This document shows, one piece after another, positions 1 to 21,631 of a DNA stretch of 64,000 nt. The notes beneath the pieces are model-generated. The model was not told the origin of the DNA, searched no databases, and was given only the letters and a program-made list of their open reading frames with translations. How positions within the stretch are numbered: the stretch's first letter is position 1; every line of letters starts with the position of its first letter. The position numbers and the translations under genes were made by a program. Source of the stretch: Marsupella aquatica (lineage: Eukaryota > Plantae > Marchantiophyta); the NCBI GenBank assembly GCA_973895155.1, contig OZ316895.1, positions 13,627,186 through 13,691,185 on the forward strand, given 5' to 3'.

Positions 1-2460
1 ACCTCCTATCTCTGTCTTGATGCCGGTTAACACTCCCGTCGGAATGACCTGATATCCATTGGCCATGTTCAACACTCTTCCAGTCATCTCCGGTGTTAGA
101 CCCCACCCTTTTACTGTTGAATCAATCATAATACATACCCCTGATCCTCCATCGATGGGTATCCGTAGTAATAATTCTCCTTGAATCATTAATGGTAATG
201 CTGGGGCTCCTTGATCTTCTTCTATCATTAGTACGTCGGATCTGGTTGCTACCTTGGGTAATCTCGGCTTGCCGAGAATAGCCTTCCTTAATTGCTTCCG
301 GAAATACGGGCTATTTTTCAATAGTTGACCTACTGTTGCCGAGACTCTAGATTCTAGTACATCTTTAGCCAGGTCATAGGGAACAATCGGCTTCTCTTCT
401 GGTGGTGTTTCCGTCTTGGATTCGGCCAGTTTTGCCACGCTAGTCTCCACAGCTGTTGGGTCTTCCGAAGCAAACAATGCTTTTGCTCGTTTTACATCCT
501 TGGCAATGGCTTCGGTATTCTCCAGGGTTTCTAATTCTCTTAGTTGTTCCTTAACACTAGCCGTAACAGAGGGGTAGAACAACTTAGGATGATCTCGATT
601 GAAGTCGCTATCTTGTGAAGGATTGGTTTCACGGGTGGGCTCATGGCTTACCTGTATTGCCGGAGCCCTCCCTTCTCCTTCTGTTGATGTTGACGAAGAG
701 TCGATCCTTTCCTCCGTAACCTTCCCTTTATTTTTGGCCAGCCCATCCCACCTTTCCTTCCTTCTGGTAGATCGAGTAGAGACCCGGTAGCAATCATGAT
801 CTAAATCCTCCTCTGAGAAGGTTGATAGGGCTTCGGCCTCATCAGCAGATGGTACGAACTCTGCCTCGGCATCCTCTTGCCATCCTAGTTCGATGTGGTT
901 GATTTGAACTCCTCCGGGGGTAGTACCTGGCGGTAAGATCTTGATCGGCAAAAGCTTATGATTTGCGGCCAGGCCTGCCAACCAAGTAGGACATTGCCCT
1001 AGCATATGACCTTCCTGTCGGCATCCCATACATAGCTGAGCTGGTTGTCCATCACCCTGTTTGCGTGCATTCGGGCATTCTCTAGCAAAATGGCCAGGTT
1101 GACCACAATTATAGCACGCCGCAAATCTTTGCACATTCGGCCTAGGAGGTACTGACGGGTTCTGAATAATCCGAGGATACATCTCTCCTGGATTGTTCCT
1201 TAACCCTGACCACAGAGATGTAGGTCTGTTGGATAGGTCTCGTGCTCCAGTCTCACTGATGCCGAAAACACTATCAGCGGCATCTCCTAAAAAGTACTCT
1301 ACTTCTCCCTGACATGGTCTGATCTCGGCCACATGCCGAACATGATTAGTATTAAGCTTAGGACACGCATCTTTATGGTGTCCGGTTTTATAACATAAGG
1401 CACACCATACAGAGCTATCCTCCTGTACTACCTTCTTCTTTGGTTTTACCTCTGCAATGATAGCCTTAAGTTGCTCGGTAAGGGCTACGATGTTATCTGG
1501 TGGCTTAGCCTCCATCTTGACTTTCGTCTTCCCTCTCCTTCTGCCCTTCCTTTTCCTAGTTTTTTCTTCTTCAGAACTAGAAGATGACTCACTCTTGCTA
1601 CTCCCACTATCCGAGCTTGACTTATCACTTCTAGACTTCTTGGGATGTTTCTTCTTCTTATCTTTTTTCTTATGGGGTGATCCCTCCTCTGATGAGGAAC
1701 TCTCAGACTTAAGCTGTTTCTTTCGGCTTGTGATATCTGCATTAATGTATAATTGAATATCCTTAATTGCTTCGGCTAAAGTCTCCGGGTTCTCCTTCCT
1801 AATTGCAAAACTCATCTTCTATGGCAAAGCATTCACCAACCATTGAAGTTGCATACCTTCAGATGCATTGGTCTTTGTACGTCTTACCAGTTTCTGAAAG
1901 CGTTGCAAGAACTTCCTGAAGGATTTGTTCTCCTTGAACCAAAGTTGTCCCAACTTCAGCACTGCTAGTTCTGAAGTTCCAATGGGTCGAAACTCCTTAA
2001 CAAAGAGTGTTTTGAAGATATCCCAGATGACTTGATCTTCCACATCTAATGCTCTGTACCAAGGCCTAGCCTCACCCTTGAACAGGCCGGGAAGAATCTG
2101 CATCTTGATGGCCGATTCTCCATTTGCTGCAGCGGTTCCCTCGAAATCATCCAACCATTCGTCCGGATCCTCATCTCCTCTCCCATGAAATGCCTTGTAA
2201 TGTATGCGCGACCGCTGGCTCAATCTGGTCCCTGGCCTCTCGTCTGGCCGTGCCTCTGGTTCCCCCATGTCGGTTGGAGACTCACTTCTCCTTACCGACT
2301 CTTCTTCTGGTATGTCTTCTTCGACGCCACTTCCAGTTTCGGAGCTACCAGCTCTTTCTGCCCCTCTCAGTCGCTGTGTATCATGCCACCCGGCGAGCTG
2401 CTGCAGTCGAGCTCTCTCCCGTTGAATCACTCTTTCTTCCCTCGGCGTAAGGTCAGTCAT
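1..2460 (-). pseudogene. gag: gag-protease of the next tandem unit (truncated by window edge)
   Basis: Matches 10889-13348, with the same in-frame TAG at 1819-1821 and one visible substitution (1941). Confidence 0.92.
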
Positions 2461-2507
2461 TACCTACGCTTCCGTTCTAACTTCATATCTCACGGCTTAA
2501 GAAATGC

Positions 2508-2525
2508 CCCCTCCATCTAGCGCCA
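2508..2525 (-). promoter_or_regulatory. Primer-binding site (second unit)
   Basis: Identical to 13396-13413 and directly follows the middle LTR. Confidence 0.8.
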
Positions 2526-2529
2526 AAAA

Positions 2530-5500
2530 TGTGGTGCGTCCCATGGCTCCCTAAACCCAAGAAACCCCCCAGCTCAAGCCGATTCCCGCAGGTTTCGTGC
2601 TTGGCGAGGCCGTTTCCGCGGCTTAGCGGCATGGGACGCTGCTAACCTTCTACTACTACTATTAACATTTTACACACATATACTGGACAGATCCTTCATC
2701 GGGTCATGAGATACGTAGCCGGCCTAATATAGGCCTTCCCCTGTCTTCCCCTGTCTTCCCCTCCGTCTTGTTAGGTATGTTTGGATTCCGCCGCCGGAAT
2801 GATCCCCAATAGGCTTGGTTAAGCCGCTAAGACCTCTCTTAGCTCGACACATCCAACTCTCACTCCCCTGCTTACTTTCCTTCCTTCTGTTGATGTGGGC
2901 ACTCTTCACACAAGTTAATGCGACACACAAATAGCAAAATGACTCATTCTGACTGAGTCATACCATGCACTTGCCATACAAACAGTACATCTCATACACA
3001 AGTTCTGCGAACTAAGCCGTGAGGCCAACTCTATTCAGCTCTTAGGCATGAGGAAACATGAATATACACAAGGGTCACTGTATGACTAACCGAGAGCTTC
3101 TCGTACTACTTGATCCCAGCCCGGCTGGTGCAAACTAAAAACTTGCTAAAGAAGAGGCCCTGAGCTCCCCGCTGCCCAGGTACTTATCCTGGTAGTGGAT
3201 CCGCCATTCTTTGCATCGTAAGCCTAATCTACTTAACAGTAATCTACTTGCCCGAATCTACCTACGTACAGCAAGGCAGGAGCACAAGTGTTGCTCCTAC
3301 CAGTGGGACCGCAATCCCACTAAGCTAAGTGTCAGGGCCGCTCCTGGTTCTGATCCTAATCCTAAACGTGGAGATCCGCGCCCGCCCTGCCCACTCACGC
3401 CTCCTCCCTCCACGTCCGCCCTCCCTAAAAGGAACGGCGCCCTTGCACCGTCACGACACCGGTGGTGGATCCTTAATGGACGCCCCCAACGCTTCCTCCT
3501 CAGCCACTGCCGTAGGCTCATTCCCTGATAGATTACCTGCCCTTGACTGAGTCAACTCTCCATCGGCCTGACTGGGTCCACCATCGGCGTCAGCATCGGC
3601 TCGAGAATCGGTTACGGCCTCAACCTCGGCTACGGTCTCCCCGGCCTGCTCAAGAGGCGGATCTGGAATACTGGCCTCCTTACTGAGTAGTTCGGCTTGG
3701 GCCGCACCATCCCTACCTGTGATCATAGCGGGATCTATTGCCGTATTCATGTCGGAGGATGGTGCTGGTTCTACCTCTTTGGTCACCACGGCTTGTGGAG
3801 TCGGATTACTCCTTGACCCTGAAGGTTTCCGCTTTTTCTTCTTTTCTGGTTCGGCAGCTGGTCCCTTCCCCTTCCCACTTACCTCCGGCACTGGTGCAGT
3901 TGGCACGGCTTTTTCTTCGGCCAGTACCACTCCTGGTAACTTGGTTGCCCCAATTGGAGTTGGGCCTGATGAAGACAAGCACCTAAATATTGCGGCTTGT
4001 TTCTTCAGCCGCTCCGTTTGGTTGTCGGCCCGCCGCTGGAGGTTCTCCATCTTCCTCGTGATTTCCTCCAACTCCTCTTGGGTCTCATCCAGGTCCTTGC
4101 GTGCCTCCTCTAGTTCCTTCTGGGCTTCCTCCCGTTCTTGTTTCAAGGTAGTCCTCTCCTCCTGGGTTGCTTTTAGCTCCTTGTCGAGCTCTGCAATGAT
4201 GACAGACTCCATCTGGTTCATCTTGGCGTAAGTCTGTTCGAGCATCTCATCCTTCTCCCTTAGGTCGGCCTTGAAGCTGGCCGTCAGGGACGCAAGCTCC
4301 TGCTGCAGCGCCATAATCCCTTGATAGGATTTCCCTAACTCGGCCTCCTTCTGCTCAAGGGCTCCGCGGATTTTCTCGAGCTCCCCTTTCAACGCCCATT
4401 CCTTTCTTTGGGTCTCCGCCATGGCCCGGCTGTTGGCTGTTATGTGGGCCTCCTCTGTATTCTTCAGCTCTTGCTTCCACTTCTCCCTCTCTTTGATCGT
4501 GTCGGCCAACTCTTCCTGCGTCTGAGTCAGTTTATCCTTGATATTCTGATTATCAGCCTGCGCGGTGTCCAACTGCCCCTGCATGATGTTCAGCTCATGT
4601 CGTTTAATCCGCAGTTCATCTTGGGCTTTCTTGGCCGCCCTTAGATCTTCAATCTCGGCTTCCATCCTCCTAAGCCGCCGAATGACCTCGTCCTTCTTGC
4701 TTCTCTCTAAAGCCACCGCTTCTTCTAATTGGTGCTTCTCCAACTGCTCCCTATGGAAAAAGGGTCCTACTTCCAACTCCTCTCCAAAGATGCCGAGCGC
4801 AAGTTCCCCACACATCTCACCATACTCCATGGCTCTATTCTTAGCGTAGGTGGAGTAAGTAGAAGTGATCGGCATCGCCCATCGCGGCCTCTGCTCCCAA
4901 GCCGTCCTGCGGATCTCTTCAATCGTGGCTAGAGGTTTGCTTCCTTTTTTGGCTAGCCGCCTGATGTCCTCCGGCCAATCTCCTCCTGGTAAATCCTTTT
5001 CCTTAGCCAGGGCGGCCTCCTCCTCCTGCTTGATTCGCTCCTGAAATTCCTGCACCATCTGTTTTATGCCGTCGAAGCTCGGGGGAGCAACATCTGGTGG
5101 GGGAGACTCAGGGCTACTCTGCTGGTTGGGGTCCCCTCGCACTACCCTTGGAAGTGTGGGGACAAACCGGCCACAGGTCCTTACTCCTGGAACGTGATGG
5201 TCCGACCCATAGCCGGAATTATCATGGCTGCAGTCCTCCACTGCCTCCTCTACCTCTTGGACGTCCGGCTTCTCCCTCTCCTCTTCGTCGGTAGGAGCTT
5301 CAGGCAATTCTGCCTCAGATTCGGAGCTTGAGGTTCCCACGTACATTCGAACACCTGGCTTGGATTCCGGCCTGATTCTCTCCTTGTCTCCAGCAAAGGG
5401 GTTTTCTCTTGTGAGCCGGTATAGGCCTACCTCTGTAGTAGTGTCCTGCATTGTTGCCGTTGCCGTTGTTGTTGCCGATGCCGATTTCTTTTCTTTCTCC

Positions 5501-7198
5501 AGTAGTTTCAGCAGACTCTGCATGCCTGGTTGCTGCATCGGCAAGTCTTCCTTCCTGGGCCTAAACACCTGCTCGATCGTAGGACTAACAGGTGGTTGAG
5601 GCTTCTCAGCCAATGGCCTCGGCGTTGGAGCTTCCTCGGGTGCCCTTACCTGCAGGGGAAGTACCGGGGCAAAAGTCTGACCTCTGGCATACCGGCACAA
5701 CAGCGGCATGTGATAGCCCAGCCACGACACGCTCCCCATGCCGATTACCTGCTGCTCCTCCTTTAAGATCTTCTTCAATTGGTTGAGGAGGTACCCGTTG
5801 TAGTCCCAGCTTGGGTCTGGCCTTTCTGCCAGATAGACCTGTGCCTTGCCGATCTCTGCCCTCGGCAAGTTACAATGCATGGTCACCCGCAAGAAGTCGA
5901 TCATCTCTCCTATGTGCGGGTTGGTGCAGGTGTTCCGGAAGAAGCCATTCTTCGTTGATGGCCCGGGGAACGACCGGAACTCCTTGTCAGGCAAGGTCTT
6001 CCTGGTATCAACTTTGGTCTTATTGCCTATCGGCAGGCCAAACACTTCGGCAATTACCTTGGGAGTAAGATAGAAATCCTTCCCATATATCCTCGTGCAA
6101 TTGGTCTCGGGTTCCCATGACCCCACGAATTCTAATAGGTCTGACTCCGGTACCTCCGGCTTCAGCCATGGTAATCTTACAAAGGCCTCCAAGCCGGATC
6201 CGACCATGAAGCCTTGGTATCTCTTGGTCTGCATGGCCGTAAAGCATGCATCCTCCTCCCGTGCAAAATGTAGTTGCACCTCCACCGGTAGGGTTGCCGC
6301 CCAGCCTTTCCAGGTGTCATCCCTGGTTGGAATGGCCTTGATGGGATCGACCTCCTCCTCTTTGGCTTCTCCCTGCCTCCTGCTCTGCTGCTCGGCTGGC
6401 TTCTTTGGTGCCGCCGACCTCGTTCTTTTTGCCGGGGTGGCTTCATCGTTGACGGCTCCCTTCCTCTTCATCTCTGCTGCCGTGGAGGTTTCTCCTAGCA
6501 CCGTTGCCTGGGTCCACCTTTCCGTGCTACCCTTTAATTCCCAGTGTATGTCGTTGTAGTTCTTGATGGCCTCTCGGATGCCGACGACACTGTCTTTGCA
6601 AAACAGAAGATCGTCGAGTTGATTGGAAGTAGGCGTCCACAGGAACTCGTCCTTGATGAGTTCGCCTCCTAAGAAAGCCGTCTTCTGCAGCTCCCACAAT
6701 CGAGCGAGCTCCTGCCGTTCTCGAGCTGCCCTTTCTGATTCCTCGTCCTCGTAAGTCTTGATGTACTCAGTTGCCCGTTCGAACAGGCATCCCCAGAAAT
6801 GTGCCGCTTGATTGACGTTGCTCATACCCTCCTTAGGTCGATCGTCGGTATCTACTCTCTTCCCGAGTGCTTGCCTAAGCAGCTGACAGTAGTTGGCCTC
6901 CCGTAGTCGTCTGCCTAGTTCGTGCTCGCAAATGAGCCACCATCTCCTGCAAGCGCTCCTTACCCCTCCCCTCTGCCGGTCCTTCTTCCCGTTGATCCTT
7001 CCTAGCCGCCGACACTTAACGCGCCCTAACCCTAATCGGGTTTTCACCCTCAGCCTTACCTCCGGCCTCTGCCCGGGTTCCATGGTTGCCCCTAATTGTT
7101 TATATTTTCCTTGTTTTGTCCCTATACTAAGGTGTTCCTAGGGTGCCTTCCTGCTTTACCCACTTAACCAGCCGAGTGATTCCTGTCTAGGCATCACA
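2530..7198 (-). repeat. Shared middle LTR (4,669 bp)
   Basis: Preceded on the minus strand by the purine tract AAGTGGGGAG-CTA and followed by TTTT, PBS and a second gag. About 21 substitutions versus the 5' LTR by eye. Confidence 0.9.
3451..7083 (-). CDS. LTR-encoded accessory protein, 1,210 aa (1,124 aa from ATG 6825)
   Basis: Uninterrupted ORF. LLEFVGSW...LTPKVIAEVFGLP resembles the Athila ORF2/plant transposon protein domain (by recall); ~250-aa E/K/Q/L coiled coil; basic NLS-like KKKKRK; no obvious TM helix. Confidence 0.85.
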   Translation of the reverse strand: MEPGQRPEVRLRVKTRLGLGRVKCRRLGRINGKKDRQRGGVRSACRRWWLICEHELGRRLREANYCQLLRQALGKRVDTDDRPKEGMSNVNQAAHFWGCLFERATEYIKTYEDEESERAARERQELARLWELQKTAFLGGELIKDEFLWTPTSNQLDDLLFCKDSVVGIREAIKNYNDIHWELKGSTERWTQATVLGETSTAAEMKRKGAVNDEATPAKRTRSAAPKKPAEQQSRRQGEAKEEEVDPIKAIPTRDDTWKGWAATLPVEVQLHFAREEDACFTAMQTKRYQGFMVGSGLEAFVRLPWLKPEVPESDLLEFVGSWEPETNCTRIYGKDFYLTPKVIAEVFGLPIGNKTKVDTRKTLPDKEFRSFPGPSTKNGFFRNTCTNPHIGEMIDFLRVTMHCNLPRAEIGKAQVYLAERPDPSWDYNGYLLNQLKKILKEEQQVIGMGSVSWLGYHMPLLCRYARGQTFAPVLPLQVRAPEEAPTPRPLAEKPQPPVSPTIEQVFRPRKEDLPMQQPGMQSLLKLLEKEKKSASATTTATATMQDTTTEVGLYRLTRENPFAGDKERIRPESKPGVRMYVGTSSSESEAELPEAPTDEEEREKPDVQEVEEAVEDCSHDNSGYGSDHHVPGVRTCGRFVPTLPRVVRGDPNQQSSPESPPPDVAPPSFDGIKQMVQEFQERIKQEEEAALAKEKDLPGGDWPEDIRRLAKKGSKPLATIEEIRRTAWEQRPRWAMPITSTYSTYAKNRAMEYGEMCGELALGIFGEELEVGPFFHREQLEKHQLEEAVALERSKKDEVIRRLRRMEAEIEDLRAAKKAQDELRIKRHELNIMQGQLDTAQADNQNIKDKLTQTQEELADTIKEREKWKQELKNTEEAHITANSRAMAETQRKEWALKGELEKIRGALEQKEAELGKSYQGIMALQQELASLTASFKADLREKDEMLEQTYAKMNQMESVIIAELDKELKATQEERTTLKQEREEAQKELEEARKDLDETQEELEEITRKMENLQRRADNQTERLKKQAAIFRCLSSSGPTPIGATKLPGVVLAEEKAVPTAPVPEVSGKGKGPAAEPEKKKKRKPSGSRSNPTPQAVVTKEVEPAPSSDMNTAIDPAMITGRDGAAQAELLSKEASIPDPPLEQAGETVAEVEAVTDSRADADADGGPSQADGELTQSRAGNLSGNEPTAVAEEEALGASIKDPPPVS

Positions 7199-7212
7199 TA
7201 GCTCCCCACTTA
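7199..7212 (-). promoter_or_regulatory. Polypurine tract
   Basis: TAAGTGGGGAGCTA immediately before the LTR TG, inside the last integrase codons. Confidence 0.7.
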
Positions 7213-10200
7213 ATTGTGAAGCGTCCTCGCGAACAACTTCATCTTCGTCCATATAGTATTTCTTGAGGCGGTCATAATGGATGCGAACTGGATATACCTC
7301 TCCCGTAATGTTGGCCAATTGTACGGAGCCATTGGGGAACATCATGGTTACTCTAAAGGGTCCTAACCAGCGAGTGTAAAGCTTTCCTGGAAACCTACTA
7401 TACCTACTGTCATAAAGTAGCACAAGATCACCGGTATGAATACTAACTACTTTTAACCTTTTATCATACTGCTGCTTCATGATATTCTGTCTATATTCTA
7501 CTCTCTCGGCTGAAATCATTCTCGCTTCCTCTAAAGCTTCTAACCTATATTCTCGCTCCTTTAGGCTCTCCTCCGCTGAGGCTCTTTCCTCAATTGTAAC
7601 TTGAAATGTCGGTATCTCAAGTTGCATGGGTACCAGGGCTTCTTGTCCAAAGGTTAAGAAGAAGGGTGTATGACCGGTAGTGGATTTATAGGCAAGATTG
7701 TAAGCAAAAACAGCAGCAAACAATTTATCATCCCAATCGAGTTTGTTCTGAGCTACTGTCTTGTTCAATATCTTTCCTATAATTCCGTTTGCTCGTTCTG
7801 TCAACCCGTTTGCCTTTGGATGGTAGGGAGTAGTAGGCCTATGTTTAACTAAATACTGCTCATTTAAACGACTAATTATATCATTCAAAAAATGGGTTCC
7901 TCTATCACTAACTAATTCTAGGGGTGCTCCATACCTGGTGAAGATCTGCTCATACATGAATCTAGCCGTAGTAATTGCATCATCCTTCGTTGTTGGTCTG
8001 GCCTCTACCCATTTAGTTGCATAATCCGTAGCCAGGATTATGTACTTGTTCCGTCGAGGGTGGGTCAGTGGTTTCAGAGGTCCAATGTAATCAATACCCC
8101 ACTTCTCGAATGGTGCCAGAGGTAGAATAGGGTGCAGTGGATGCCTGGTGGACGCCCTTGGTCCTCCCGCTCATTGACAAGGATCGCATTGTTTGATAAA
8201 CTGATAGACATCTTTGTGCAAGGTGGGCCACTAGTAACCGGCATTTAATATCTTCTTAGACGTGGTTATTGGGGCAAAATGTCCTCCGGCCTCCTCTCCA
8301 TGCATGGCCCGTAGGACTCGTTTTACCTCTCTCTTTTCCAAACATCTTTGAATCGTGCCGTTGATTCCATGCTTGTGCAGTATGCCTTTAATGCACTGAT
8401 ACTGTCTGACCTTCCGCACAAAGACTGCGGCTTGCTCTCGGCTTAATCCTGGTTGTAATCTGGAAGTGCTGAGAAATTGTAAAATCTCAGGGTACCATGT
8501 ACCAGCTATTTCCACAACGAATAGCTCCTCGTCGGGGAATCGATCATCGATGCAATCCGTGGCAGGTTTACCTGTGATCCTTGAAAAGAAGTCGGCATTG
8601 GCATGTAACTTTCCCGGCTTGATCCTCAGCTCATAGTCACTGTAATAGCAAAATCCATCTTGCTACTCTGCCTGTAAGGTCCGGCTTATTGACTAGGTAC
8701 TTCAAACTTTCGTGATCAGTATGAAAGATTACCTTGTACCCTAGTAAATAATGCCTAAACTTTTTACAAGAATAAATGACTCCTAATGCTTCTCTTTCCG
8801 TGGTAGAGTAGTTCCGTTCGGCATCGGCAAGCTGACGGCTTGCGAAGTATATGGGATGGTCCCTTCCTTTCTCATCCAACTGACTTAGTACTGAGCCAAT
8901 ACAGAAGCCCGAGACATCTACAAAAACATGAAAATCTTTGTTCCAGTCCGGTGCTATCATGACTGGGGCCTCTACTAACATCTGCTTTAATTCTACCACC
9001 GCTGTGACTCGTTCGGGTGTGGGTTCGAAGTCTGCTCCTGCCTTGAGCATATTGGTTAATGGTAAAGCTAGCTTGGCAAAATCCTTGATGAACCGGCGAT
9101 AGTAACCAATGCATCCCAAGAAGGATCTTACATCCTTTATGTTCTTAGGTTGCATGATATCTAGCCATACTGCTAGCTTACCTTTGTCAATCTCAATGCC
9201 CTTCCTTGATACCTTGTGACCTAGTAGCACCCCCTCGGTTACTGAAAAAAAACATTTATCTGGGTGTAACTTGAGACCCACCTCTCTACATCTCATGAAG
9301 GTTTTCCTGAGGTATTTAGCATGTTTCGATGCCTTCCCGAATACTGCAAAGTCATCAATGAAGATTTCCATGAACTTTCTCAAGTAATCATGAAAAATGT
9401 TCACCATTAATCGTTGGAACATAGCTGGTGCATTGCAGAGTCCAAACGGCATACGATTGAAGACATAGATCCCCCATTCCGTGATGAAGGCCGTCTTGAT
9501 TTGGTCTTCCTGCCGAATCCTGATTTGGTTATAACCAGAGTATCCATCCATGAATGAATATAGTTCATGACTGACTACCATGTCTAGTACCATATCAGTA
9601 AATGGTAAAGGAAAATGGTCTTTTAATGTTGCTTCATTCAGCTTCCTGTAATCCTGACAAACCCGGATCTTGGGTTTACCATCGGGTCCAGCTTTCTTGG
9701 GAACTATCACAATTGGAGACACCCAGTCTGAATGCAGGACTGGAGTGATGAATCCAGCTTCCACTAGTTTGTCGATTTCTGTTTTGACCAGCAGGGAATA
9801 CTTCGGGTTCATCCTTCGAATTGGTTGTCGAAATGATTTGGCTCCTAACATGAGATCAATTCGATGTTCCCCTAGTGTTGGATCTACTCCCTTTAGATCT
9901 TGGTGACTCCATGCAAACACATCCTGAAATTCAATCAATAAGTCACTGATCTCTTTCTCGAGCTCAGGTGCTAGGTTTCTCCCTAAGTTCAGTTCTCTTC
10001 CCTCTCCTAAGTCGAGCTTCCGATATTGCCGTGCTTGGATCATATTAATCTGCTTCTTCAAATTTGGGTCCAGTTCGGCTTCCAGTCTCTCTAATCTCAT
10101 ACCTCCATAAACTGGGATCTCGGCTGGACTAGCCGAGTCGGTCCCTTCCTTGGTGTCCATAGATTGTCCCCTTACCGGTCTATTCGGTTTTGAATTAGTG

Positions 10201-10354
10201 GTCGGCTCCCCTTCCTGCCTTGGCTCTGGATCGTGTCTGTCCATCTCATCCACCTCTTGCTCCTGAGAGTTAGGCCGCTGTGCTCTCTCGGCTTCTAATA
10301 GGGCCTCGATTTGTTCTGCCCTCATAATCGGCTTGTATGCCGATCCCTTGGTAT

Positions 10355-13348
10355 TTAATTCCTTGCCGATGATCGATGGCGTTGTGGACCCCGTCGGCTC
10401 TGCCACAACGCCTGCAGAAAATCCACTGTCCCTGCTACTGCTCCCCACTTAGCCGTTTCATCCAATTGGTCTACATCCTTTACTTCCTCCGGAATTGCAG
10501 CTAAAAAGGTGGATTCTATTGTAAAGCAGTCCTCGACCTCTTCGTCTTCTTCTTCCAAGTCACCTTCCATTGGTTCTTGCCATAATCCGCTGGGGGCTAC
10601 CTCTGGTCCAAAGACACCTTCTTCGGTTAGGTTAGTGAGGCATTCTAACCAACGTACTTCATCGGCTGACTCCAGTCCACTGTCGTACCCATCTACTTCC
10701 CTTATGCTTTTCCTACGGTCATCCTTAGTGTCCCAGGATACCGTGATAGAGGGGGTCCCGAAAGTGAACTGCTTTTTACCCCAATCTTCTATTACCTCGG
10801 CTAGGTACAGCCATGGCCTACCAATCAATAGCCGGAATGACGTAGGATTTACCGGCTTCATTACTACATAGTTAATGCTAAAGAAGATACCTCCTATCTC
10901 TGTCTTGATGCCGGTTAACACTCCCGTCGGAATGACCTGATATCCATTGGCCATGTTCAACACTCTTCCAGTCATCTCCGGTGTTAGACCCCACCCTTTT
11001 ACTGTTGAATCAATCATAATACATACCCCTGATCCTCCATCGATGGGTATCCGTAGTAATAATTCTCCTTGAATCATTAATGGTAATGCTGGGGCTCCTT
11101 GATCTTCTTCTATCATTAGTACGTCGGATCTGGTTGCTACCTTGGGTAATCTCGGCTTGCCGAGAATAGCCTTCCTTAATTGCTTCCGGAAATACGGGCT
11201 ATTTTTCAATAGTTGACCTACTGTTGCCGAGACTCTAGATTCTAGTACATCTTTAGCCAGGTCATAGGGAACAATCGGCTTCTCTTCTGGTGGTGTTTCC
11301 GTCTTGGATTCGGCCAGTTTTGCCACGCTAGTCTCCACAGCTGTTGGGTCTTCCGAAGCAAACAATGCTTTTGCTCGTTTTACATCCTTGGCAATGGCTT
11401 CGGTATTCTCCAGGGTTTCTAATTCTCTTAGTTGTTCCTTAACACTAGCCGTAACAGAGGGGTAGAACAACTTAGGATGATCTCGATTGAAGTCGCTATC
11501 TTGTGAAGGATTGGTTTCACGGGTGGGCTCATGGCTTACCTGTATTGCCGGAGCCCTCCCTTCTCCTTCTGTTGATGTTGACGAAGAGTCGATCCTTTCC
11601 TCCGTAACCTTCCCTTTATTTTTGGCCAGCCCATCCCACCTTTCCTTCCTTCTGGTAGATCGAGTAGAGACCCGGTAGCAATCATGATCTAAATCCTCCT
11701 CTGAGAAGGTTGATAGGGCTTCGGCCTCATCAGCAGATGGTACGAACTCTGCCTCGGCATCCTCTTGCCATCCTAGTTCGATGTGGTTGATTTGAACTCC
11801 TCCGGGGGTAGTACCTGGCGGTAAGATCTTGATCGGCAAAAGCTTATGATTTGCGGCCAGGCCTGCCAACCAAGTAGGACATTGCCCTAGCATATGACCT
11901 TCCTGTCGGCATCCCATACATAGCTGAGCTGGTTGTCCATCACCCTGTTTGCGTGCATTCGGGCATTCTCTAGCAAAATGGCCAGGTTGACCACAATTAT
12001 AGCACGCCGCAAATCTTTGCACATTCGGCCTAGGAGGTACTGACGGGTTCTGAATAATCCGAGGATACATCTCTCCTGGATTGTTCCTTAACCCTGACCA
12101 CAGAGATGTAGGTCTGTTGGATAGGTCTCGTGCTCCAGTCTCACTGATGCCGAAAACACTATCAGCGGCATCTCCTAAAAAGTACTCTACTTCTCCCTGA
12201 CATGGTCTGATCTCGGCCACATGCCGAACATGATTAGTATTAAGCTTAGGACACGCATCTTTATGGTGTCCGGTTTTATAACATAAGGCACACCATACAG
12301 AGCTATCCTCCTGTACTACCTTCTTCTTTGGTTTTACCTCTGCAATGATAGCCTTAAGTTGCTCGGTAAGGGCTACGATGTTATCTGGTGGCTTAGCCTC
12401 CATCTTGACTTTCGTCTTCCCTCTCCTTCTGCCCTTCCTTTTCCTAGTTTTTTCTTCTTCAGAACTAGAAGATGACTCACTCTTGCTACTCCCACTATCC
12501 GAGCTTGACTTATCACTTCTAGACTTCTTGGGATGTTTCTTCTTCTTATCTTTTTTCTTATGGGGTGATCCCTCCTCTGATGAGGAACTCTCAGACTTAA
12601 GCTGTTTCTTTCGGCTTGTGATATCTGCATTAATGTATAATTGAATATCCTTAATTGCTTCGGCTAAAGTCTCCGGGTTCTCCTTCCTAATTGCAAAACT
12701 CATCTTCTATGGCAAAGCATTCACCAACCATTGAAGTTGCATACCTTCAGATGCATTGGTCTTTGTACGTCTTACCAGTTTCTGAAAGCGTTGCAAGAAC
12801 TTCCTGAAGGATTTGTTCTCCTTGAACCGAAGTTGTCCCAACTTCAGCACTGCTAGTTCTGAAGTTCCAATGGGTCGAAACTCCTTAACAAAGAGTGTTT
12901 TGAAGATATCCCAGATGACTTGATCTTCCACATCTAATGCTCTGTACCAAGGCCTAGCCTCACCCTTGAACAGGCCGGGAAGAATCTGCATCTTGATGGC
13001 CGATTCTCCATTTGCTGCAGCGGTTCCCTCGAAATCATCCAACCATTCGTCCGGATCCTCATCTCCTCTCCCATGAAATGCCTTGTAATGTATGCGCGAC
13101 CGCTGGCTCAATCTGGTCCCTGGCCTCTCGTCTGGCCGTGCCTCTGGTTCCCCCATGTCGGTTGGAGACTCACTTCTCCTTACCGACTCTTCTTCTGGTA
13201 TGTCTTCTTCGACGCCACTTCCAGTTTCGGAGCTACCAGCTCTTTCTGCCCCTCTCAGTCGCTGTGTATCATGCCACCCGGCGAGCTGCTGCAGTCGAGC
13301 TCTCTCCCGTTGAATCACTCTTTCTTCCCTCGGCGTAAGGTCAGTCAT
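10355..13348 (-). pseudogene. gag: gag-protease ORF with one in-frame TAG (12707-12709)
   Basis: Capsid-like FHGRGDEDPDEWL...FKGEARPWY, three CX2CX4HX4C knuckles, aspartic protease IDGGSGVCI and LLIGRPWL. The 213 aa and 782 aa ORFs are in one frame, separated by TAG-AAG. Confidence 0.9.
10365..10424 (-). promoter_or_regulatory. Putative -1 programmed ribosomal frameshift signal
   Basis: G GAT TTT (10424-10418), 5-nt spacer, perfect 10-bp stem GGCGTTGTGG/CCACAACGCC, loop GCCGA complementary to downstream TCGGC. pol is in the -1 frame. Confidence 0.8.
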
Positions 13349-13395
13349 TACCTACGCTTCCGTTCTAACTTCATATCTCACGGCTTAAGAAATGC

Positions 13396-13413
13396 CCCCT
13401 CCATCTAGCGCCA
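13396..13413 (-). promoter_or_regulatory. Primer-binding site
   Basis: TGGCGCTAGATGGAGGGG, 4 nt after the LTR CA end. The CA-TTTT-TGGCGC spacing is typical of Athila/Tat. Cognate tRNA not assigned. Confidence 0.8.
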
Positions 13414-13417
13414 AAAA

Positions 13418-16400
13418 TGTGGTGCGTCCCATGGCTCCCTAAACCCAAGAAACCCCCCAGCTCAAGCCGATTCCCGCAGGTTTCGTGCTTGGCGAGGCCG
13501 TTTCCGCGGCTTAGCGGCATGGGACGCTGCTAACCTTCTACTACTACTATTAACATTTTACACACATATACTGGACAGATCCTTCATCGGGTCATGAGAT
13601 ACGTAGCCGGCCTAATATAGGCCTTCCCCTGTCTTCCCCTGTCTTCCCCTCCGTCTTGTTAGGTATGTTTGGATTCCGCCGCCGGAATGATCCCCAATAG
13701 GCTTGGTTAAGCCGCTAAGACCTCTCTTAGCTCGACACATCCAACTCTCACTCCCCTGCTTACTTTCCTTCCTTCTGTTGATGTGGGCACTCTTCACACA
13801 AGTTAATGCGACACACAAATAGCAAAATGACTCATTCTGACTGAGTCATACCATGCACTTGCCATACAAACAGTACATCTCATACACAAGTTCTGCGAAC
13901 TAAGCCGTGAGGCCAACTCTATTCAGCTCTTAGGCATGAGGAAACATGAATATACACAAGGGTCACTGTATGACTAACCGAGAGCTTCTCGTACTACTTG
14001 ATCCCAGCCCGGCTGGTGCAAACTAAAAACTTGCTAAAGAAGAGGCCCTGAGCTCCCCGCTGCCCAGGTACTTATCCTGGTAGTGGATCCGCCATTCTTT
14101 GCATCGTAAGCCTAATCTACTTAACAGTAATCTACTTGCCCGAATCTACCTACGTACAGCAAGGCAGGAGCACAAGTGTTGCTCCTACCAGTGGGACCGC
14201 AATCCCACTAAGCTAAGTGTCAGGGCCGCTCCTGGTTCTGATCCTAATCCTAAACGTGGAGATCCGCGCCCGCCCTGCCCACTCACGCCTCCTCCCTCCA
14301 CGTCCGCCCTCCCTAAAAGGAACGGCGCCCTTGCACCGTCACGACACCGGTGGTGGATCCTTAATGGACGCCCCCAACGCTTCCTCCTCAGCCACTGCCG
14401 TAGGCTCATTCCCTGATAGATTACCTGCCCTTGACTGAGTCAACTCTCCATCGGCCTGACTGGGTCCACCATCGGCGTCAGCATCGGCTCGAGAATCGGT
14501 TACGGCCTCAGCCTCGGCTACGGTCTCCCCGGCCTGCTCAAGAGGCGGATCTGGAATACTGGCCTCCTTACTGAGTAGTTCGGCTTGGGCCGCACCATCC
14601 CTACCTGTGATCATAGCGGGATCTATTGCCGTATTCATGTCGGAGGATGGTGCTGGTTCTACCTCTTTGGTCACCACGGCTTGTGGAGTCGGATTACTCC
14701 TTGACCCTGAAGGTTTCCGCTTTTTCTTCTTTTCTGGTTCGGCAGCTGGTCCCTTCCCCTTCCCACTTACCTCCGGCACTGGTGCAGTTGGCACGGCTTT
14801 TTCTTCGGCCAGTACCACTCCTGGTAACTTGGTTGCCCCAATTGGAGTTGGGCCTGATGAAGACAAGCACCTAAATATTGCGGCTTGTTTCTTCAGCCGC
14901 TCCGTTTGGTTGTCGGCCCGCCGCTGGAGGTTCTCCATCTTCCTCGTGATTTCCTCCAACTCCTCTTGGGTCTCATCCAGGTCCTTGCGTGCCTCCTCTA
15001 GTTCCTTCTGGGCTTCCTCCCGTTCTTGTTTCAAGGTAGTCCTCTCCTCCTGGGTTGCTTTTAGCTCCTTGTCGAGCTCTGCAATGATGACAGACTCCAT
15101 CTGGTTCATCTTGGCGTAAGTCTGTTCGAGCATCTCGTCCTTCTCCCTTAGGTCGGCCTTGAAGCTGGCCGTCAGGGACGCAAGCTCCTGCTGCAGCGCC
15201 ATAATCCCTTGATAGGATTTCCCTAACTCGGCCTCCTTCTGCTCAAGGGCTCCGCGGATTTTCTCGAGCTCCCCTTTCAACGCCCATTCCTTTCTTTGGG
15301 TCTCCGCCATGGCCCGGCTGTTGGCTGTTATGTGGGCCTCCTCTGTATTCTTCAGCTCTTGCTTCCACTTCTCCCTCTCTTTGATCGTGTCGGCCAACTC
15401 TTCCTGCGTCTGAGTCAGTTTATCCTTGATATTCTGATTATCAGCCTGCGCGGTGTCCAACTGCCCCTGCATGATGTTCAGCTCATGTCGTTTAATCCGC
15501 AGTTCATCTTGGGCTTTCTTGGCCGCCCTTAGATCTTCAATCTCGGCTTCCATCCTCCTAAGCCGCCGAATGACCTCGTCCTTCTTGCTTCTCTCTAAAG
15601 CCACCGCTTCTTCTAATTGGTGCTTCTCCAACTGCTCCCTATGGAAAAAGGGTCCTACTTCCAACTCCTCTCCAAAGATGCCGAGCGCAAGTTCCCCACA
15701 CATCTCACCATACTCCATGGCTCTATTCTTAGCGTAGGTGGAGTAAGTAGAAGTGATCGGCATCGCCCATCGCGGCCTCTGCTCCCAAGCCGTCCTACGG
15801 ATCTCTTCAATCGTGGCTAGAGGTTTGCTTCCTTTTTTGGCTAGCCGCCTGATGTCCTCCGGCCAATCTCCTCCTGGTAAATCCTTTTCCTTAGCCAGGG
15901 CGGCCTCCTCCTCCTGCTTGATTCGCTCCTGAAATTCCTGCACCATCTGTTTTATGCCGTCGAAGCTCGGGGGAGCAACATCTGGTGGGGGAGACTCAGG
16001 GCTACTCTGCTGGTTGGGGTCCCCTCGCACTACCCTTGGAAGTGTGGGGACAAACCGGCCACAGGTCCTTACTCCTGGAACATGATGGTCCGACCCATAG
16101 CCGGAATTATCATGGCTGCAGTCCTCCACTGTCTCCTCTACCTCTTGGACGTCCGGCTTCTCCCTCTCCTCTTCGTCGGTAGGAGCTTCAGGCAATTCTG
16201 CCTCAGATTCGGAGCTTGAGGTTCCTACGTACATTCGAACACCTGGCTTGGATTCCGGCCTGATTCTCTCCTTGTCTCCAGCAAAGGGGTTTTCTCTTGT
16301 GAGCCGGTATAGGCCTACCTCTGTAGTAGTGTCCTGCATTGTTGCCGTTGCCGTTGTTGTTGCCGATGCCGATTTCTTTTCTTTCTCCAGTAGTTTCAGC

Positions 16401-18086
16401 AGACTCTGCATGCCTGGTTGCTGCATCGGCAAGTCTTCCTTCCTGGGCCTAAACACCTGCTCGATCGTAGGACTAACAGGTGGTTGAGGCTTCTCAGCCA
16501 ACGGCCTCGGCGTTGGAGCTTCCTCGGGTGCCCTTACCTGCAGGGGAAGTACCGGGGCAAAAGTCTGACCTCTGGCATACCGGCACAACAGCGGCATGTG
16601 ATAGCCCAGCCGCGACACGCTCCCCATGCCGATTACCTGCTGCTCCTCCTTTAAGATCTTCTTCAATTGGTTGAGGAGGTACCCGTTGTAGTCCCGGCTT
16701 GGGTCTGGCCTTTCTGCCAGATAGACCTGTGCCTTGCCGATCTCTGCCCTCGGCAAGTTACAATGCATGGTCACCCGCAAGAAGTCGATCATCTCTCCTA
16801 TGTGCGGGTTGGTGCAGGTGTTCCGGAAGAAGCCATTCTTCGTTGATGGCCCGGGGAACGACCGGAACTCCTTGTCAGGCAAGGTCTTCCTGGTATCAAC
16901 TTTGGTCTTATTGCCTATCGGCAGGCCAAACACTTCGGCAATTACCTTGGGAGTAAGATAGAAATCCTTCCCATATATCCTCGTGCAATTGGTCTCGGGT
17001 TCCCATGACCCCACGAATTCTAATAGGTCTGACTCCGGTACCTCCGGCTTCAGCCATGGTAATCTTACAAAGGCCTCCAAGCCGGATCCGGCCATGAAGC
17101 CTTGGTATCTCTTGGTCTGCATGGCCGTAAAGCATGCATCCTCCTCCCGTGCAAAATGTAGTTGCACCTCCACCGGTAGGGTTGCCGCCCAGCCTTTCCA
17201 GGTGTCATCCCTGGTTGGAATGGCCTTGATGGGATCGACCTCCTCCTCTTCGGCTTCTCCCTGCCTCCTGCTCTGCTGCTCGGCTGGCTTCTTTGGTGCC
17301 GCCGACCTCGTTCTTTTTGCCGGGGTGGCTTCATCGTTGACGGCTCCCTTCCTCTTCATCTCTGCTGCCGTGGAGGTTTCTCCTAGCACCGTTGCCTGGG
17401 TCCACCTTTCCGTGCTACCCTTTAATTCCCAGTGTATGTCGTTGCAGTTCTTGATGGCCTCTCGGATGCCGACGACGCTGTCTTTGCAAAACAGAAGATC
17501 GTCGAGTTGATTGGAAGTAGGCGTCCACAGGAACTCGTCCTTGATGAGTTCGCCTCCTAAGAAAGTCGTCTTCTGTAGCTCCCACAATCGAGCGAGCTCC
17601 TGCCGTTCTCGAGCTGCCCTTTCTGATTCCTCATCCTCGTAAGTCTTGATGTACTCAGTTGCCCGTTCGAACAGGCATCCCCAGAAATGTGCCGCTTGAT
17701 TGACGTTGCTCATACCCTCCTTAGGTCGATTGTCGGTATCTACTCTCTCCCCGAGTGCTTGCCTAAGCAGCTGACAGTAGTTGGCCTCCCGTAGTCGTCT
17801 GCCTAGTTCGTGCTAGCAAATGAGCCACCATCTCCTGCAAGCGCTCCTTACCCCTCCCCTCTGCCGGTCCTTCTTCCCGTTGATCCTTCCTAGCCGCCGA
17901 CGCTTAACGCGCCCTAACCCTAATCGGGTTTTCACCCTCAGCCTTACCTCCGGCCTCTGCCCGGGTTCCATGGTTGCCCCTAATTGTTTATATTTTCCTT
18001 GTTTTGTCCCTATACTAAGGTGTTCCTAGGGTGCCTTCCTGCTTTACCCACTTAACCGGCCGAGTGATTCCTGTCTAGGCATCACA
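13418..18086 (-). repeat. 5' LTR (4,669 bp)
   Basis: Minus strand starts TGTGATGC and ends GCACCACA (7/8 terminal inverted repeat), followed by TTTT and a PBS. Identity with the other copy stops exactly at 18086. Confidence 0.9.
14339..17713 (-). CDS. LTR-encoded accessory protein, 1,124 aa (5' LTR copy)
   Basis: Near-identical to 3451-6825. The upstream 86-codon extension is broken by a TAG near 17814. Confidence 0.85.
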   Translation of the reverse strand: MSNVNQAAHFWGCLFERATEYIKTYEDEESERAARERQELARLWELQKTTFLGGELIKDEFLWTPTSNQLDDLLFCKDSVVGIREAIKNCNDIHWELKGSTERWTQATVLGETSTAAEMKRKGAVNDEATPAKRTRSAAPKKPAEQQSRRQGEAEEEEVDPIKAIPTRDDTWKGWAATLPVEVQLHFAREEDACFTAMQTKRYQGFMAGSGLEAFVRLPWLKPEVPESDLLEFVGSWEPETNCTRIYGKDFYLTPKVIAEVFGLPIGNKTKVDTRKTLPDKEFRSFPGPSTKNGFFRNTCTNPHIGEMIDFLRVTMHCNLPRAEIGKAQVYLAERPDPSRDYNGYLLNQLKKILKEEQQVIGMGSVSRLGYHMPLLCRYARGQTFAPVLPLQVRAPEEAPTPRPLAEKPQPPVSPTIEQVFRPRKEDLPMQQPGMQSLLKLLEKEKKSASATTTATATMQDTTTEVGLYRLTRENPFAGDKERIRPESKPGVRMYVGTSSSESEAELPEAPTDEEEREKPDVQEVEETVEDCSHDNSGYGSDHHVPGVRTCGRFVPTLPRVVRGDPNQQSSPESPPPDVAPPSFDGIKQMVQEFQERIKQEEEAALAKEKDLPGGDWPEDIRRLAKKGSKPLATIEEIRRTAWEQRPRWAMPITSTYSTYAKNRAMEYGEMCGELALGIFGEELEVGPFFHREQLEKHQLEEAVALERSKKDEVIRRLRRMEAEIEDLRAAKKAQDELRIKRHELNIMQGQLDTAQADNQNIKDKLTQTQEELADTIKEREKWKQELKNTEEAHITANSRAMAETQRKEWALKGELEKIRGALEQKEAELGKSYQGIMALQQELASLTASFKADLREKDEMLEQTYAKMNQMESVIIAELDKELKATQEERTTLKQEREEAQKELEEARKDLDETQEELEEITRKMENLQRRADNQTERLKKQAAIFRCLSSSGPTPIGATKLPGVVLAEEKAVPTAPVPEVSGKGKGPAAEPEKKKKRKPSGSRSNPTPQAVVTKEVEPAPSSDMNTAIDPAMITGRDGAAQAELLSKEASIPDPPLEQAGETVAEAEAVTDSRADADADGGPSQADGELTQSRAGNLSGNEPTAVAEEEALGASIKDPPPVS

Positions 18087-18111
18087 GCGGCGCTAGATTC
18101 TTGGTCAAGCA

Positions 18112-21100: not shown

Positions 21101-21458
21101 TGTTTATTTGCAGCAGACAGCACCCACAACACTTGATGTGACCGCAGGTCGGACAATCTTACGTGTGCGTGAAGTGTTGCCTTCTGGTGTCCTGATGTTG
21201 GAGGGACGCGATGGTATGGTTTGGAAGGATCATGTGCGCAACTGTGCACCATGTCACCTTCCCAACATTGATGGTACAGTAGATCCAAGTTTGGCACATG
21301 TTTGTGCTGGCTTGAAATGTATGTTGTGTGGATCTACTCAGGGAGCAGCTACTATGTTGATTTGTGATAAATGTTCTAGAGGATGGCACATGTCATGTTT
21401 GACACCACCATTGCAGGTGATTCCTAGTGGATCATGGTTGTGTCCTCAGTGTCGGTGA
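18112..21458 (+). pseudogene. pol: pol remnant (RT-RH-INT-PHD) with multiple stops and frameshifts
   Basis: Fragments 18382-18837, 18988-19257, ~19260-19462, 19499-19750, 19919-20280, 20313-21458. C-terminal C4HC3 PHD at 21318-21452. Confidence 0.9.
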
Positions 21459-21631
21459 AGCCGACTAATTATCATGTGTTCTCTTGGCAGATATGGATTG
21501 CAGATAGGTGATCGATGGGGCTCACTTGCACCCGGCCTCCTGATCTTCACACCTGAAAAGGTGTATATCAACCTTGTAGAACTCATGACTAGCTAGAGTT
21601 AGGGGACCTTACTCCCAGCTAGGGGGGCGAT

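Follow-up and report, generated by a model that had tools for sequence, protein, structure and literature searches.

A probable 4,669-bp LTR with a long extra open reading frame in a Ty3/gypsy element of the liverwort Marsupella aquatica

Introduction

Plant LTRs are usually taken as non-coding, and the extra open reading frames (ORFs) of plant elements are described as internal. Reverse transcription gives both ends of a retrovirus a copy of any accessory gene that lies in its LTR; HIV nef and foamy-virus bel2 are located there. MMTV sag is likewise reported as an accessory gene within the LTR (PMC9412291).

Among plant elements, the Athila lineage (Athila4, Calypso, Cyclops, Bagy2, Diaspora) has a single sense extra ORF between pol and the polypurine tract (PPT), and for Athila, Calypso and Bagy2 this ORF is reported as internal and 3' of pol (PMC7264820, PMC1142308). 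The primer binding site (PBS) of Diaspora and Calypso is offset from the LTR by 5 bp (PMC1142308), and the REXdb supplement assigns the Athila PBS to tRNA-Asp in 72% and to tRNA-Asn in 12%. The REXdb methods count ORFs up- and downstream of pol, without saying whether these lie in an LTR. Ogre, Retand, Grande, RIRE2 and Retrosat2 are large non-chromovirus or long-LTR elements whose extra ORFs bear PMD or TRP28 domains and SMC-like helical regions; with Ogre LTRs of 1.9-6.5 kb, giant LTR size alone is already known (PMC6431247). Their ORFs are described as internal as well, either between LTR and gag or in antisense between pol and LTR. Tandem arrays with common LTRs, in which LTR and internal region alternate after one insertion, are also on record (PMC11899658). 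None of these three traits, the long LTR, the tandem array or the extra ORF, is new in itself; for an extra ORF inside an LTR, we found no description for plants in the literature searched. Tat Z1/Z2, clades of non-flowering plants that occur in Marchantia, are non-chromovirus elements without an additional RNase H, which we set beside our element by description only; its own lack of an additional RNase H would suit them, and the available passages of PMC10508981 make no mention of LTR-borne ORFs in them.

Where, then, does the extra ORF of a liverwort element lie? We analyzed a 64,000-nt stretch of M. aquatica DNA (contig OZ316895.1; hereafter the window, in whose positions all coordinates are given). 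It holds a Ty3/gypsy element, likely of an Athila-related bryophyte lineage, that reads on the minus strand and forms a tandem array with a repeat unit of 10,888 bp. The array itself is nothing new and serves here as evidence for the limits of the LTR. With the Athila lineage the element shares the domain order, the absence of an extra RNase H and a chromodomain, an offset of 4-7 nt between PBS and LTR end, and a sense extra ORF 3' of pol, whose central domain may resemble Transposase_32/ATHILA proteins. Unlike in Athila, the PPT precedes the ORF, which is found in both LTRs, the encoded protein has no membrane segment, and the RT falls with liverwort sequences. Ogre and Retand possess the extra RNase H that the window element lacks, and the ORFs of their group are not placed in the LTR. 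The layout resembles that of MMTV sag, but ours is a plant gypsy element without env and without sequence kinship to sag (no such match in Pfam or PDB). The sag gene is, moreover, several times shorter than the window ORF.

Results

A direct repeat of 4,669 bp (TG...CA) flanks the gag-pol internal region on both sides, as LTRs do. Its copies, both on the minus strand, occupy 2530..7198 (the middle LTR of the array, which probably combines parts of the original 3' and 5' LTRs) and 13418..18086 (the 5'-terminal LTR, adjoining an interrupted host element at 18087). Positions 1-7198 and 10889-18086 are 99.69% identical, with 22 substitutions and no gaps, and this identity ends at 7198/18086. Read on the minus strand, the LTR starts with TGTGATGC at 7198. 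Abutting it on the upstream side are the PPT AAGTGGGGAG, which is short (9 purines in 10 nt), and a CTA spacer (7199..7211, minus strand). The LTR ends with GCACCACA at 2530, followed by TTTT and then TGGCGCTAGATGGAGGGGG, the PBS (2507..2525, second copy 13395-13413, minus strand), located 4 nt past the LTR end. We take this PBS to be of the tRNA-Asn type; no tRNA gene was found within the window. The terminal inverted repeat of the LTR matches at 7/8. A second TG site in the 10,888-bp unit (5702/16590) also scores 7/8, inside the ORF and without a purine tract, so that the inverted repeat by itself is not unique. The boundaries proposed in a first-pass annotation of this DNA, namely PPT-TG at 7198, CA-TTTT-PBS at 2530, the 7/8 inverted repeat and the end of identity at 18086, were all recovered. 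The same applies to the integrase stop codon that it had placed inside the LTR start: the frame ends at 7189-7187, which is 10-12 nt into the LTR.

The internal region (7199..13417, minus strand; 6,219 bp) comprises PBS, gag, protease region, RT, RNase H, integrase and PPT, with a short linker between RNase H and integrase. Its gag-pol is interrupted in gag by a stop that both internal copies share, near 8640 by a frame break, and in the integrase region by two stops. Pfam searches on window pieces found neither an extra RNase H nor a chromodomain in the internal region. The start of a second internal copy (1..2529, minus strand) shows 1 difference in 2,529 bp and continues beyond the window edge. 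The nearest named RTs are from liverworts. In quick trees without an outgroup or labelled REXdb references, the window RT joins the Calypogeia RTs (99) and stays separate from those of angiosperms; its identity to the angiosperm clade is 44-51%.

The extra ORF of the middle LTR (3451..7083, minus strand) encodes 1,210 aa from the ATG at 7083 or 1,124 aa from the ATG at 6825, within a frame of 1,228 codons from stop to stop (3451-7137). Codon 71 of the long form is a stop in the 18086 copy, where the 1,124-aa form alone is open (14339..17713, minus strand). The two forms take up 78% and 72% of the LTR, in agreement with the initial claim that an ORF of 1,124-1,210 aa fills more than 70% of the interval in both copies. 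Shuffling the LTR 300 times gave frames of at most 366 aa, and the chi2 for codon-position bias was 176 in the ORF versus 1.3 in the non-coding part of the LTR. Between the two window copies, the ORF differs at 20 positions (8 silent, 11 replacement, 1 stop; neutral expectation 34% silent); in this comparison it has been under no selection since insertion. Among 12 family-copy indels listed, ten are of 1-2 bp in the non-coding 3' part, one is a +3 change in the ORF and one falls in pol. Frameshifting indels among those listed thus number 0 in the 3.7 kb of the ORF versus 10 in the 0.9 kb beside it.

Depth was taken as summed contig depth in the public runs X1 and X2, which is not a copy number; X4 and X6, whose RT/integrase bins are flooded by related families, were for that reason kept out of the depth ratio. 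The median depth of 12 LTR bins relative to that of 16 internal bins was 3.66 (X1) and 3.71 (X2). Each LTR bin was deeper than each internal bin, and the ORF bins were about level with the non-coding 3' bins in both runs. The first-pass annotation had named a short LTR inside 2530-3450 as the finding that would count against it; depth falls about 3.7-fold at the LTR start (~7200) instead, with no step near 3400-3450 in X1 or X2. LTR ends were also seen to join different genomic flanks, in few cases among the matches listed. At least three X1 joints re-enter exactly at 2530 from other positions, and an X6 contig of 376 bases follows the element as far as 7198/18086 and continues with 106 letters that fit neither the internal region nor the host. 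At least three X1 contigs of the host family cross 18087 without the element. The loose ends listed for X1 and X2 (24 of 1,607 and 24 of 94) include no pile of different flanks at 7198.

The differences between the window copies are unevenly spread, with 3 in 1-4908 versus 19 in 4909-7198 and a changepoint at about 4908; none of 5,000 permutations gave one as strong. The best interval for this change in substitution density, 4250..4909 (no strand), presumably marks where the two original LTRs crossed over. Unequal exchange between LTRs that had already aged would account for the changepoint at 4908 and for its direction, which is that expected for a 3'/5' hybrid middle LTR. The tandem array most likely arose by such a crossover between the LTRs of one insertion.

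Do other elements show this layout? Two of ten metagenome loci, L001 and L002, have both a PBS and DNA beyond the integrase stop; the other eight are short or distant (27-29% RT) and uninformative. Two short contigs of a cyanobacterial bin have a purine tract after integrase, with too little DNA to reveal an ORF. The RTs of L001 and L002 are 59% identical to that of the window element. In both loci the order is pol stop, purine tract, TG and then an ORF, whose ATG lies 514 nt (L001) or 660 nt (L002) past the TG. This TG matches the element's own LTR end at 9/9 (L001) and 8/9 (L002) and is the sole such site in 7,517 and 8,242 bp; for L001, two candidate LTR ends were tried and one matched. As these loci hold no second LTR copy across the ORF, its placement in their LTRs rests on PPT, TG and inverted repeat. 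The pol of L001 is unbroken, in the order RT-RH-INT and without a chromodomain or additional RNase H (Pfam). The PBS of both loci is presumably of the tRNA-Asp type. The L001 ORF scored 35.4 against the profile of the central domain described below; the highest score among 60 shuffles was 22.8, and that among 11 natural negatives 21.5. Compared directly by BLASTP, the window and L001 ORFs gave no significant match (E 0.42), and the L001 ORF has no counterpart of the N-terminal 270 residues of the window ORF. Judged from sequence, L001 and L002 likely have in common an LTR-borne ORF that is distantly homologous to ours. The PPT and TG before the homologous ORF in these two relatives, the depth step at ~7200 and the changepoint uphold the original view of the 4.67-kb interval as an LTR bearing an ORF.

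What does the extra ORF encode? Its conserved central domain (aa 271-495; 5653..6327, minus strand) has homologs in Calypogeia fissa and other assemblies, at 24-48% identity, and is Transposase_32/Athila-ORF-like by language-model features only. In the ESM Atlas it scores 0.89 and 0.87 to the named families Transposase_32/ATHILA, values below 0.9 that constitute a lead without alignment. The L001 ORF reaches 0.91, with 23 of 30 matches to Transposase_32, again a lead without alignment; both ORFs point to Transposase_32 and to one common ATHILA cluster. In Pfam, with Transposase_32 (PF20167) and ATHILA ORF-1 (PF03078) included, neither the window ORF nor any of its 21 phmmer hits nor the L001 ORF had a match. 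The phmmer match P0130 is a bacterial repeat protein and was excluded from the alignments; P0149, which aligned at 0%, was removed from alignment A2.

A charged, Pro/Gly-poor stretch (aa 801-1050; 3988..4737, minus strand) is a predicted coiled coil, with weak ATG16 and Relaxase_C matches below cut-off and no clear peak in a crude heptad test. It is followed by a basic, NLS-like cluster, KKKKRK, at aa 1099. The highest 19-residue hydropathy is 0.91, and no membrane segment of the kind that marks env-like proteins was found. Structure models were poor (pLDDT 36.9 from the single sequence, 55.4 from 16 sequences). Foldseek gave no match at E 0.001, VIA-align none at Z >=5, and a PDB sequence search with the extra ORF was empty; such blanks do not amount to a new fold. 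These structure and PDB searches identified no DNA-binding fold. There was likewise no match in a word-indexed protein search with ORF residues 60-520, in alignments to proteins of 1,379-3,935 aa, a length range poorly suited to the ORF, or among viral contigs with four queries.

Discussion

We hold with good confidence that a Ty3/gypsy element, likely from an Athila-related bryophyte lineage, has the 4,669-bp repeat as its LTR, and that the ORF in this LTR, likely in U3, encodes a predicted nuclear accessory protein that regulates the element. In the standard scheme of reverse transcription, plus-strand synthesis would begin at the purine tract beside the integrase end. Since this tract lies 5' of the extra ORF on the genomic RNA, the ORF would be copied into both LTRs: the genomic RNA (~11 kb) would contain the gene once, at the 3' position where Athila extra ORFs normally lie, whereas two copies would be present in the 15,557-bp DNA, and plus strong-stop DNA would measure about 4.7 kb. 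Motifs suggest two transcripts. TATAAA at 7099..7104 (minus strand), the sole TATA[AT]A on the minus strand of the LTR, is a candidate promoter near the 5' edge for an extra-ORF mRNA that would end in the 3' part of the LTR. TATATTAG at 2724..2731 (minus strand), ~200 nt before the LTR end, is a candidate second promoter, for the genomic RNA; L002 has TATAAAAG ~150 nt before its own LTR end. With promoter, ORF and terminator all inside the LTR, a solo LTR would keep all three. No isolated solo LTR was encountered, and the depth ratio above 2 is our basis for proposing that solo LTRs may be intact, expressed cassettes. The weakest step concerns the protein, which is predicted to bind DNA or chromatin at its own LTRs and to promote transcription or counter silencing in trans; we find this plausible, if a shade short of probable.

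Could the true LTR instead be short (~870-920 bp, starting near 3397), with the ORF an ordinary internal 3' extra ORF and 18086 a point of truncation or recombination? This would match the layout of Athila, Calypso and Bagy2 (PMC7264820, PMC1142308), a pure purine run (12/12) does precede a TG at 3397, just past the ORF stop, and no TSD was seen in the window, the far end of the array lying beyond it. That TG, however, matches the LTR end at only 4/8, and neither X1 nor X2 has a depth step there. The break would have to fall exactly on a TG after a purine tract, both here and in the independent X6 contig, the older divergence of the ORF region is simply explained only by two long-lived LTR copies, and the boundary in L001 and L002 precedes the ORF. 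We therefore regard a short LTR as highly improbable. A long LTR could also hold the ORF in R/U5, with a single 5'-edge promoter and an RNA in which the extra ORF comes first and gag-pol behind. The only canonical TATAAA of the LTR, at 7104, is indeed 95 nt from its start, splice-donor-like GTAAG at 7059 and 6963 could allow the ORF to be bypassed, and Ogre and Retrosat2 have extra ORFs upstream of gag. Such an arrangement would, however, need a 4.5-kb minus strong-stop DNA and read-through of the terminator in the 5' LTR, and L002 pairs its canonical site near the LTR end with a TATA-like site ~230 nt before the extra ORF, while L001 has a TATA-like site ~185 nt before its own; we consider it unlikely.

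With the ORF placed in a long LTR, its protein might still serve the particle or the RNA, in packaging, nuclear import or cell-to-cell movement or as a chaperone, rather than act on chromatin. Such roles have been suggested for the sense 3' extra ORFs that plant elements carry (PMC7264820), the long charged helical stretch would suit a scaffold, and a DNA-binding fold was not identified. The lack of a membrane segment, the NLS-like basic cluster and the nuclear location or predicted DNA binding of related extra-ORF proteins (PMC7264820, PMC11963269) speak against it, and leave it conceivable but doubtful. Nor does the ORF look like a functionless passenger, open merely through the youth of the family. 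The lack of selection between the window copies would agree with this, but the listed frameshifting indels spare the ORF while ten lie in the adjoining 0.9 kb, and homologous domains occur in other genomes, in the same position in L001 and L002; we think a passenger very unlikely.

One may speculate, with considerable reserve, that an old Athila-related bryophyte lineage keeps an accessory gene in U3, that its solo LTRs, maybe outnumbering whole elements, amount to thousands of stand-alone, expressed trans-activator or anti-silencing genes, and that flowering-plant Athila has this gene too, as its internal 'env-like' ORF, the purine tract having shifted to the opposite flank. A single such shift would suffice to move a gene between internal region and LTR, and an LTR gene of more than 1,100 codons would parallel the U3 genes of retroviruses. 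Solo-LTR formation, the host's usual deletion route, would leave the accessory gene whole, and such solo LTRs would be wrongly annotated as host genes by gene callers or by annotation pipelines that set short LTR limits. What Athila-type extra ORFs do is a question of long standing; a self-contained cassette with its own promoter would offer a simple unit for work in liverwort models.

The array itself lies in the pol region of an older, decayed gypsy element (18087..22236, plus strand). A PBS-like sequence at the 18087 flank was rejected, as it is pol sequence of this host element, which carries a PHD finger after its integrase.

The terminal repeat and its boundaries

Self-comparison of the window shows that 10889–18086 is a second copy of 1–7198, with 22 substitutions, no gaps and a period of 10,888 bp; the first-pass annotation had correctly ended the repeat at 18086. 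On the minus strand the tandem array reads LTR (18086–13418), primer binding site (PBS), gag, pol, purine tract, LTR (7198–2530), PBS and gag, up to the window edge. Each LTR opens with TGTGATGC and closes with GCACCACA, an inverted repeat of 7/8 letters; the boundaries proposed earlier, one at the TG after the purine tract and the other before the PBS, are confirmed. A second TG site at 7/8 within the repeat unit lies inside the extra open reading frame (ORF), without a purine tract. The integrase frame runs into the LTR, as had been claimed, and stops 10–12 nt inside it. The overlap is peculiar to the window element's own family: in L001 and L002, two metagenome loci that are distant relatives, pol stops 60–90 nt upstream of the LTR. 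In the window copy, gag-pol is disrupted at several places.

Does the LTR hold a genuine gene? The ORF measures 1,210 aa from the ATG at 7083 or 1,124 aa from the ATG at 6825. A frame of 1,124–1,210 aa had been noted in both copies; in the LTR ending at 18086, a stop at codon 71 leaves the shorter form alone open. The longest frame in 300 shuffled LTRs is 366 codons. Codon positions are strongly biased in the ORF (chi2 176) and unbiased in the 921 bp behind it (1.3). Since 8/20 ORF differences between the window copies are silent, the ORF evolves neutrally between them, as expected after insertion. Family-wide, the frameshifting indels among those listed (12 of 15 rows) avoid the ORF.

Two smaller features deserve mention. 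An uninterrupted purine run followed by TG lies directly past the ORF stop (3397–3434, minus strand) and may be what remains of an earlier purine tract, dating back to a stage with a short LTR. Motifs resembling telomere repeats, which we take to be telo-boxes, occur near both LTR ends (7020–7035 and 2550–2560), not far from the candidate promoters.

Origin of the array

Differences between the two copies are unevenly spread, with 3 in 1–4908 (0.06%) and 19 in 4909–7198 (0.83%), and the strength of the changepoint at 4908 was matched in 0 of 5,000 permutations. What could produce such a step? A single insertion would age to 0.8% LTR–LTR divergence and then duplicate by unequal crossover; the middle LTR would then take its 5' part from the old 3' LTR and its 3' part from a fresh copy of the 5' LTR, and the internal regions would be almost identical. 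The substitution pattern agrees with this expectation, and tandem LTR-retrotransposon arrays are already known and thought to derive from single insertions (PMC11899658). The same pattern could alternatively stem from gene conversion, with another member of the family as donor. The older 0.83% divergence sits within the ORF; under unequal crossover, both original LTRs therefore held it.

Contig depth and break points

Contigs from four public sequencing runs (X1, X2, X4 and X6) were aligned along 2300–13000. The ratio of LTR to internal median summed depth is 3.66 in X1 and 3.71 in X2 (12 LTR bins against 16 internal bins, leaving out two boundary bins), where summed contig depth is not equal to copy number. 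In both runs all LTR bins are deeper than any internal bin, and bins of the ORF are about as deep as the non-coding 3' bins. X4 and X6 were excluded from the ratio because related families overwhelm the RT and integrase bins of these two runs. Numerous solo LTRs would give a ratio above 2, although such a value is no proof of them.

Some break points fall on the same boundaries. Among the joints listed for X1, at least three re-enter at exactly 2530 (from 3384, 5135 and 5702), as would be expected of copies nested in other copies. One X6 contig matches as far as 7198/18086; its next 106 letters correspond neither to the internal region nor to the host element, the older gypsy copy interrupted by the array. 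In X4, the similarity to related families includes the integrase end and is lost at 7192–7194. Three contigs from X1 carry the host element uninterrupted across 18087, the insertion being absent. On the other side, stacked differing flanks at 7198 were seen for neither X1 nor X2 among the ends listed (24/1,607 and 24/94). One X1 contig omits 152 bases at 4191–4344 and inserts 5 letters, a net loss of 147 bases or 49 codons that falls within a predicted coiled coil.

Distant relatives apparently share the arrangement

When metagenomes were searched with a related RT, 10 loci were found, two of which, L001 and L002, span both the PBS and DNA beyond the integrase stop. Past the pol stop, both have a purine tract and then TGTGGGAGC. 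The latter agrees with the LTR end that precedes the PBS of the same locus, in 9/9 letters for L001 (two ends were tried, and the second matched) and in 8/9 for L002; neither contig has another such site. The start of a sense ORF lies 514 nt (L001) or 660 nt (L002) past the TG. The DNA following the TG is unlike that preceding the PBS, so the LTRs exceed ~1.5 kb in L001 and ~2.2 kb in L002. With one LTR copy per contig across the ORF, we infer that the ORF lies in the LTR. A profile built on the central domain of the window ORF (aa 271–495) finds the L001 ORF (probability 78.5, E 1.7e-5), which scores 35.4 with a trimmed profile, compared to at most 22.8 for 60 shuffles and 21.5 for 11 natural negatives; direct BLASTP of the window ORF against the L001 ORF was not significant. 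The changepoint, depth, break points and these two loci support the earlier view of the 4.67-kb interval as a gene-carrying LTR. We consider this layout very probable, and it is apparently common to a distant family. A scan of genome contigs also found two gypsy integrase contigs, 52–53% identical to L001, in a cyanobacterial genome bin; they are probably host-plant DNA.

Lineage

Among named RTs, the closest are those of two liverworts, Calypogeia fissa (62–72%) and Riccia sorocarpa (at most 61%); matches from angiosperms lie at 38–49%. The host plant is probably a liverwort as well. Quick RT trees (112 of 120 hits in one, 40 rows in the other), built with neither an outgroup nor labelled references, join the window element to Calypogeia (SH-aLRT 99), and a wider group adds L001, L002 and one Riccia RT, with the angiosperm clade separate. 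Pfam found neither an extra RNase H nor a chromodomain in the window pieces or L001 pol. The PBS is presumably Asn-like in the window and Asp-like in L001 and L002. In the REXdb supplement, Athila PBSs are 72% Asp and 12% Asn. We call the element Athila-related; it could conceivably belong to Tat Z1/Z2 (PMC10508981).

Predicted protein and proposed mechanism

Pfam found no family above its cut-off in the extra ORF. A phmmer search of 1.84 billion representatives returned 21 hits at E ≤0.001, which span the N-terminal and central domains; one, a bacterial repeat protein, was spurious, and named Calypogeia fissa proteins made up 2 of the 10 hits looked up. A long charged tail recurs in several homologs. 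The ESM Atlas connects the central domain with Transposase_32 (0.89) and, at 0.87, with an ATHILA cluster (17% of members); the L001 ORF finds the same cluster (0.91), and 23/30 of its hits are Transposase_32; we treat these likenesses as leads. The protein has a single strong basic cluster, at aa 1099, and no membrane segment was found; the quality of the structure models was too low to assign a fold.

How would a gene come to lie in an LTR? Plus-strand priming directly behind the integrase would place the ORF within the terminal repeat, and because of it the ORF would be doubled at every transposition. The LTR may have two promoters, judging from a TATAAA at 7104 and a second, TATA-like motif at 2731; L002 has TATA motifs at both corresponding places and L001 before its ORF. 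Such a layout would put the ORF in U3 and leave R and U5 short. Transcription that starts ~30 nt past the TATA at 7104 would leave out the ATG at 7083. This would agree with the fact that only the 1,124-aa form is intact in both copies; on the way to the ATG at 6825 there is a short out-of-frame ATG near 6940. By analogy with Grande gene23, TRP28 proteins and gypsy-borne PMD domains, the product is tentatively predicted to be a nuclear regulator of its own element, at somewhat less than even odds. The gene23 protein is nuclear and TRP28 proteins are predicted to bind DNA (PMC7264820 and PMC11963269), and gypsy elements carry PMD domains (PMC5418596).

Comparison with known elements

The length of the LTR has precedents: LTRs of up to ~5 kb are known (PMC6317226), and those of Ogre measure 1.9–6.5 kb (PMC6431247). 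A review places plant extra ORFs in the internal region (PMC7264820); in Athila relatives the extra ORF lies between pol and the polypurine tract (PMC1142308), and ORF0 of Retrosat2 is 'upstream of' gag-pol (PMC3485330). The literature searched, mostly open-access, yielded no example of an ORF located within the LTR of a plant retrotransposon; the only direct phrase match was an MMTV review, and the available portions of PMC12885004, PMC11656987 and PMC7466625 held nothing further. The element thus combines known parts in an arrangement that we have not found described for plant elements. REXdb scores each ORF by its position relative to pol, upstream or downstream. LTR-borne ORFs may sit unnoticed there, because exclusion of LTRs is unstated and the 5' and 3' ORF shares of TatII are similar (23 and 26%, in columns that look shifted in some rows).

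Other features of the window

The host element (18087–22236, plus strand) is a decayed gypsy copy with a PHD finger after the integrase (Pfam E 7e-11), a domain that finds no mention in the REXdb main text. It contains a 140-bp repeat (21630–21769 and 22097–22236) and is high-copy in X1 and X2. Tandem arrays occupy 31236–31855 (period ~64–75/209 bp), 33684–34452 (~185 bp), 37943–38092 (~79 bp) and 38443–38796 (~74/147 bp). Exons at 41394–48730 (plus strand) belong to a host gene whose product has a LisH motif and an acidic C-terminal end, and which looks like DCAF1/VprBP. A Copia-type element with RVT_2 and GAG-pre-integrase domains (53313–60148, minus strand) is flanked by 346-bp repeats of 98% identity, and a host ferrochelatase exon lies at 62609–63214 (plus strand).
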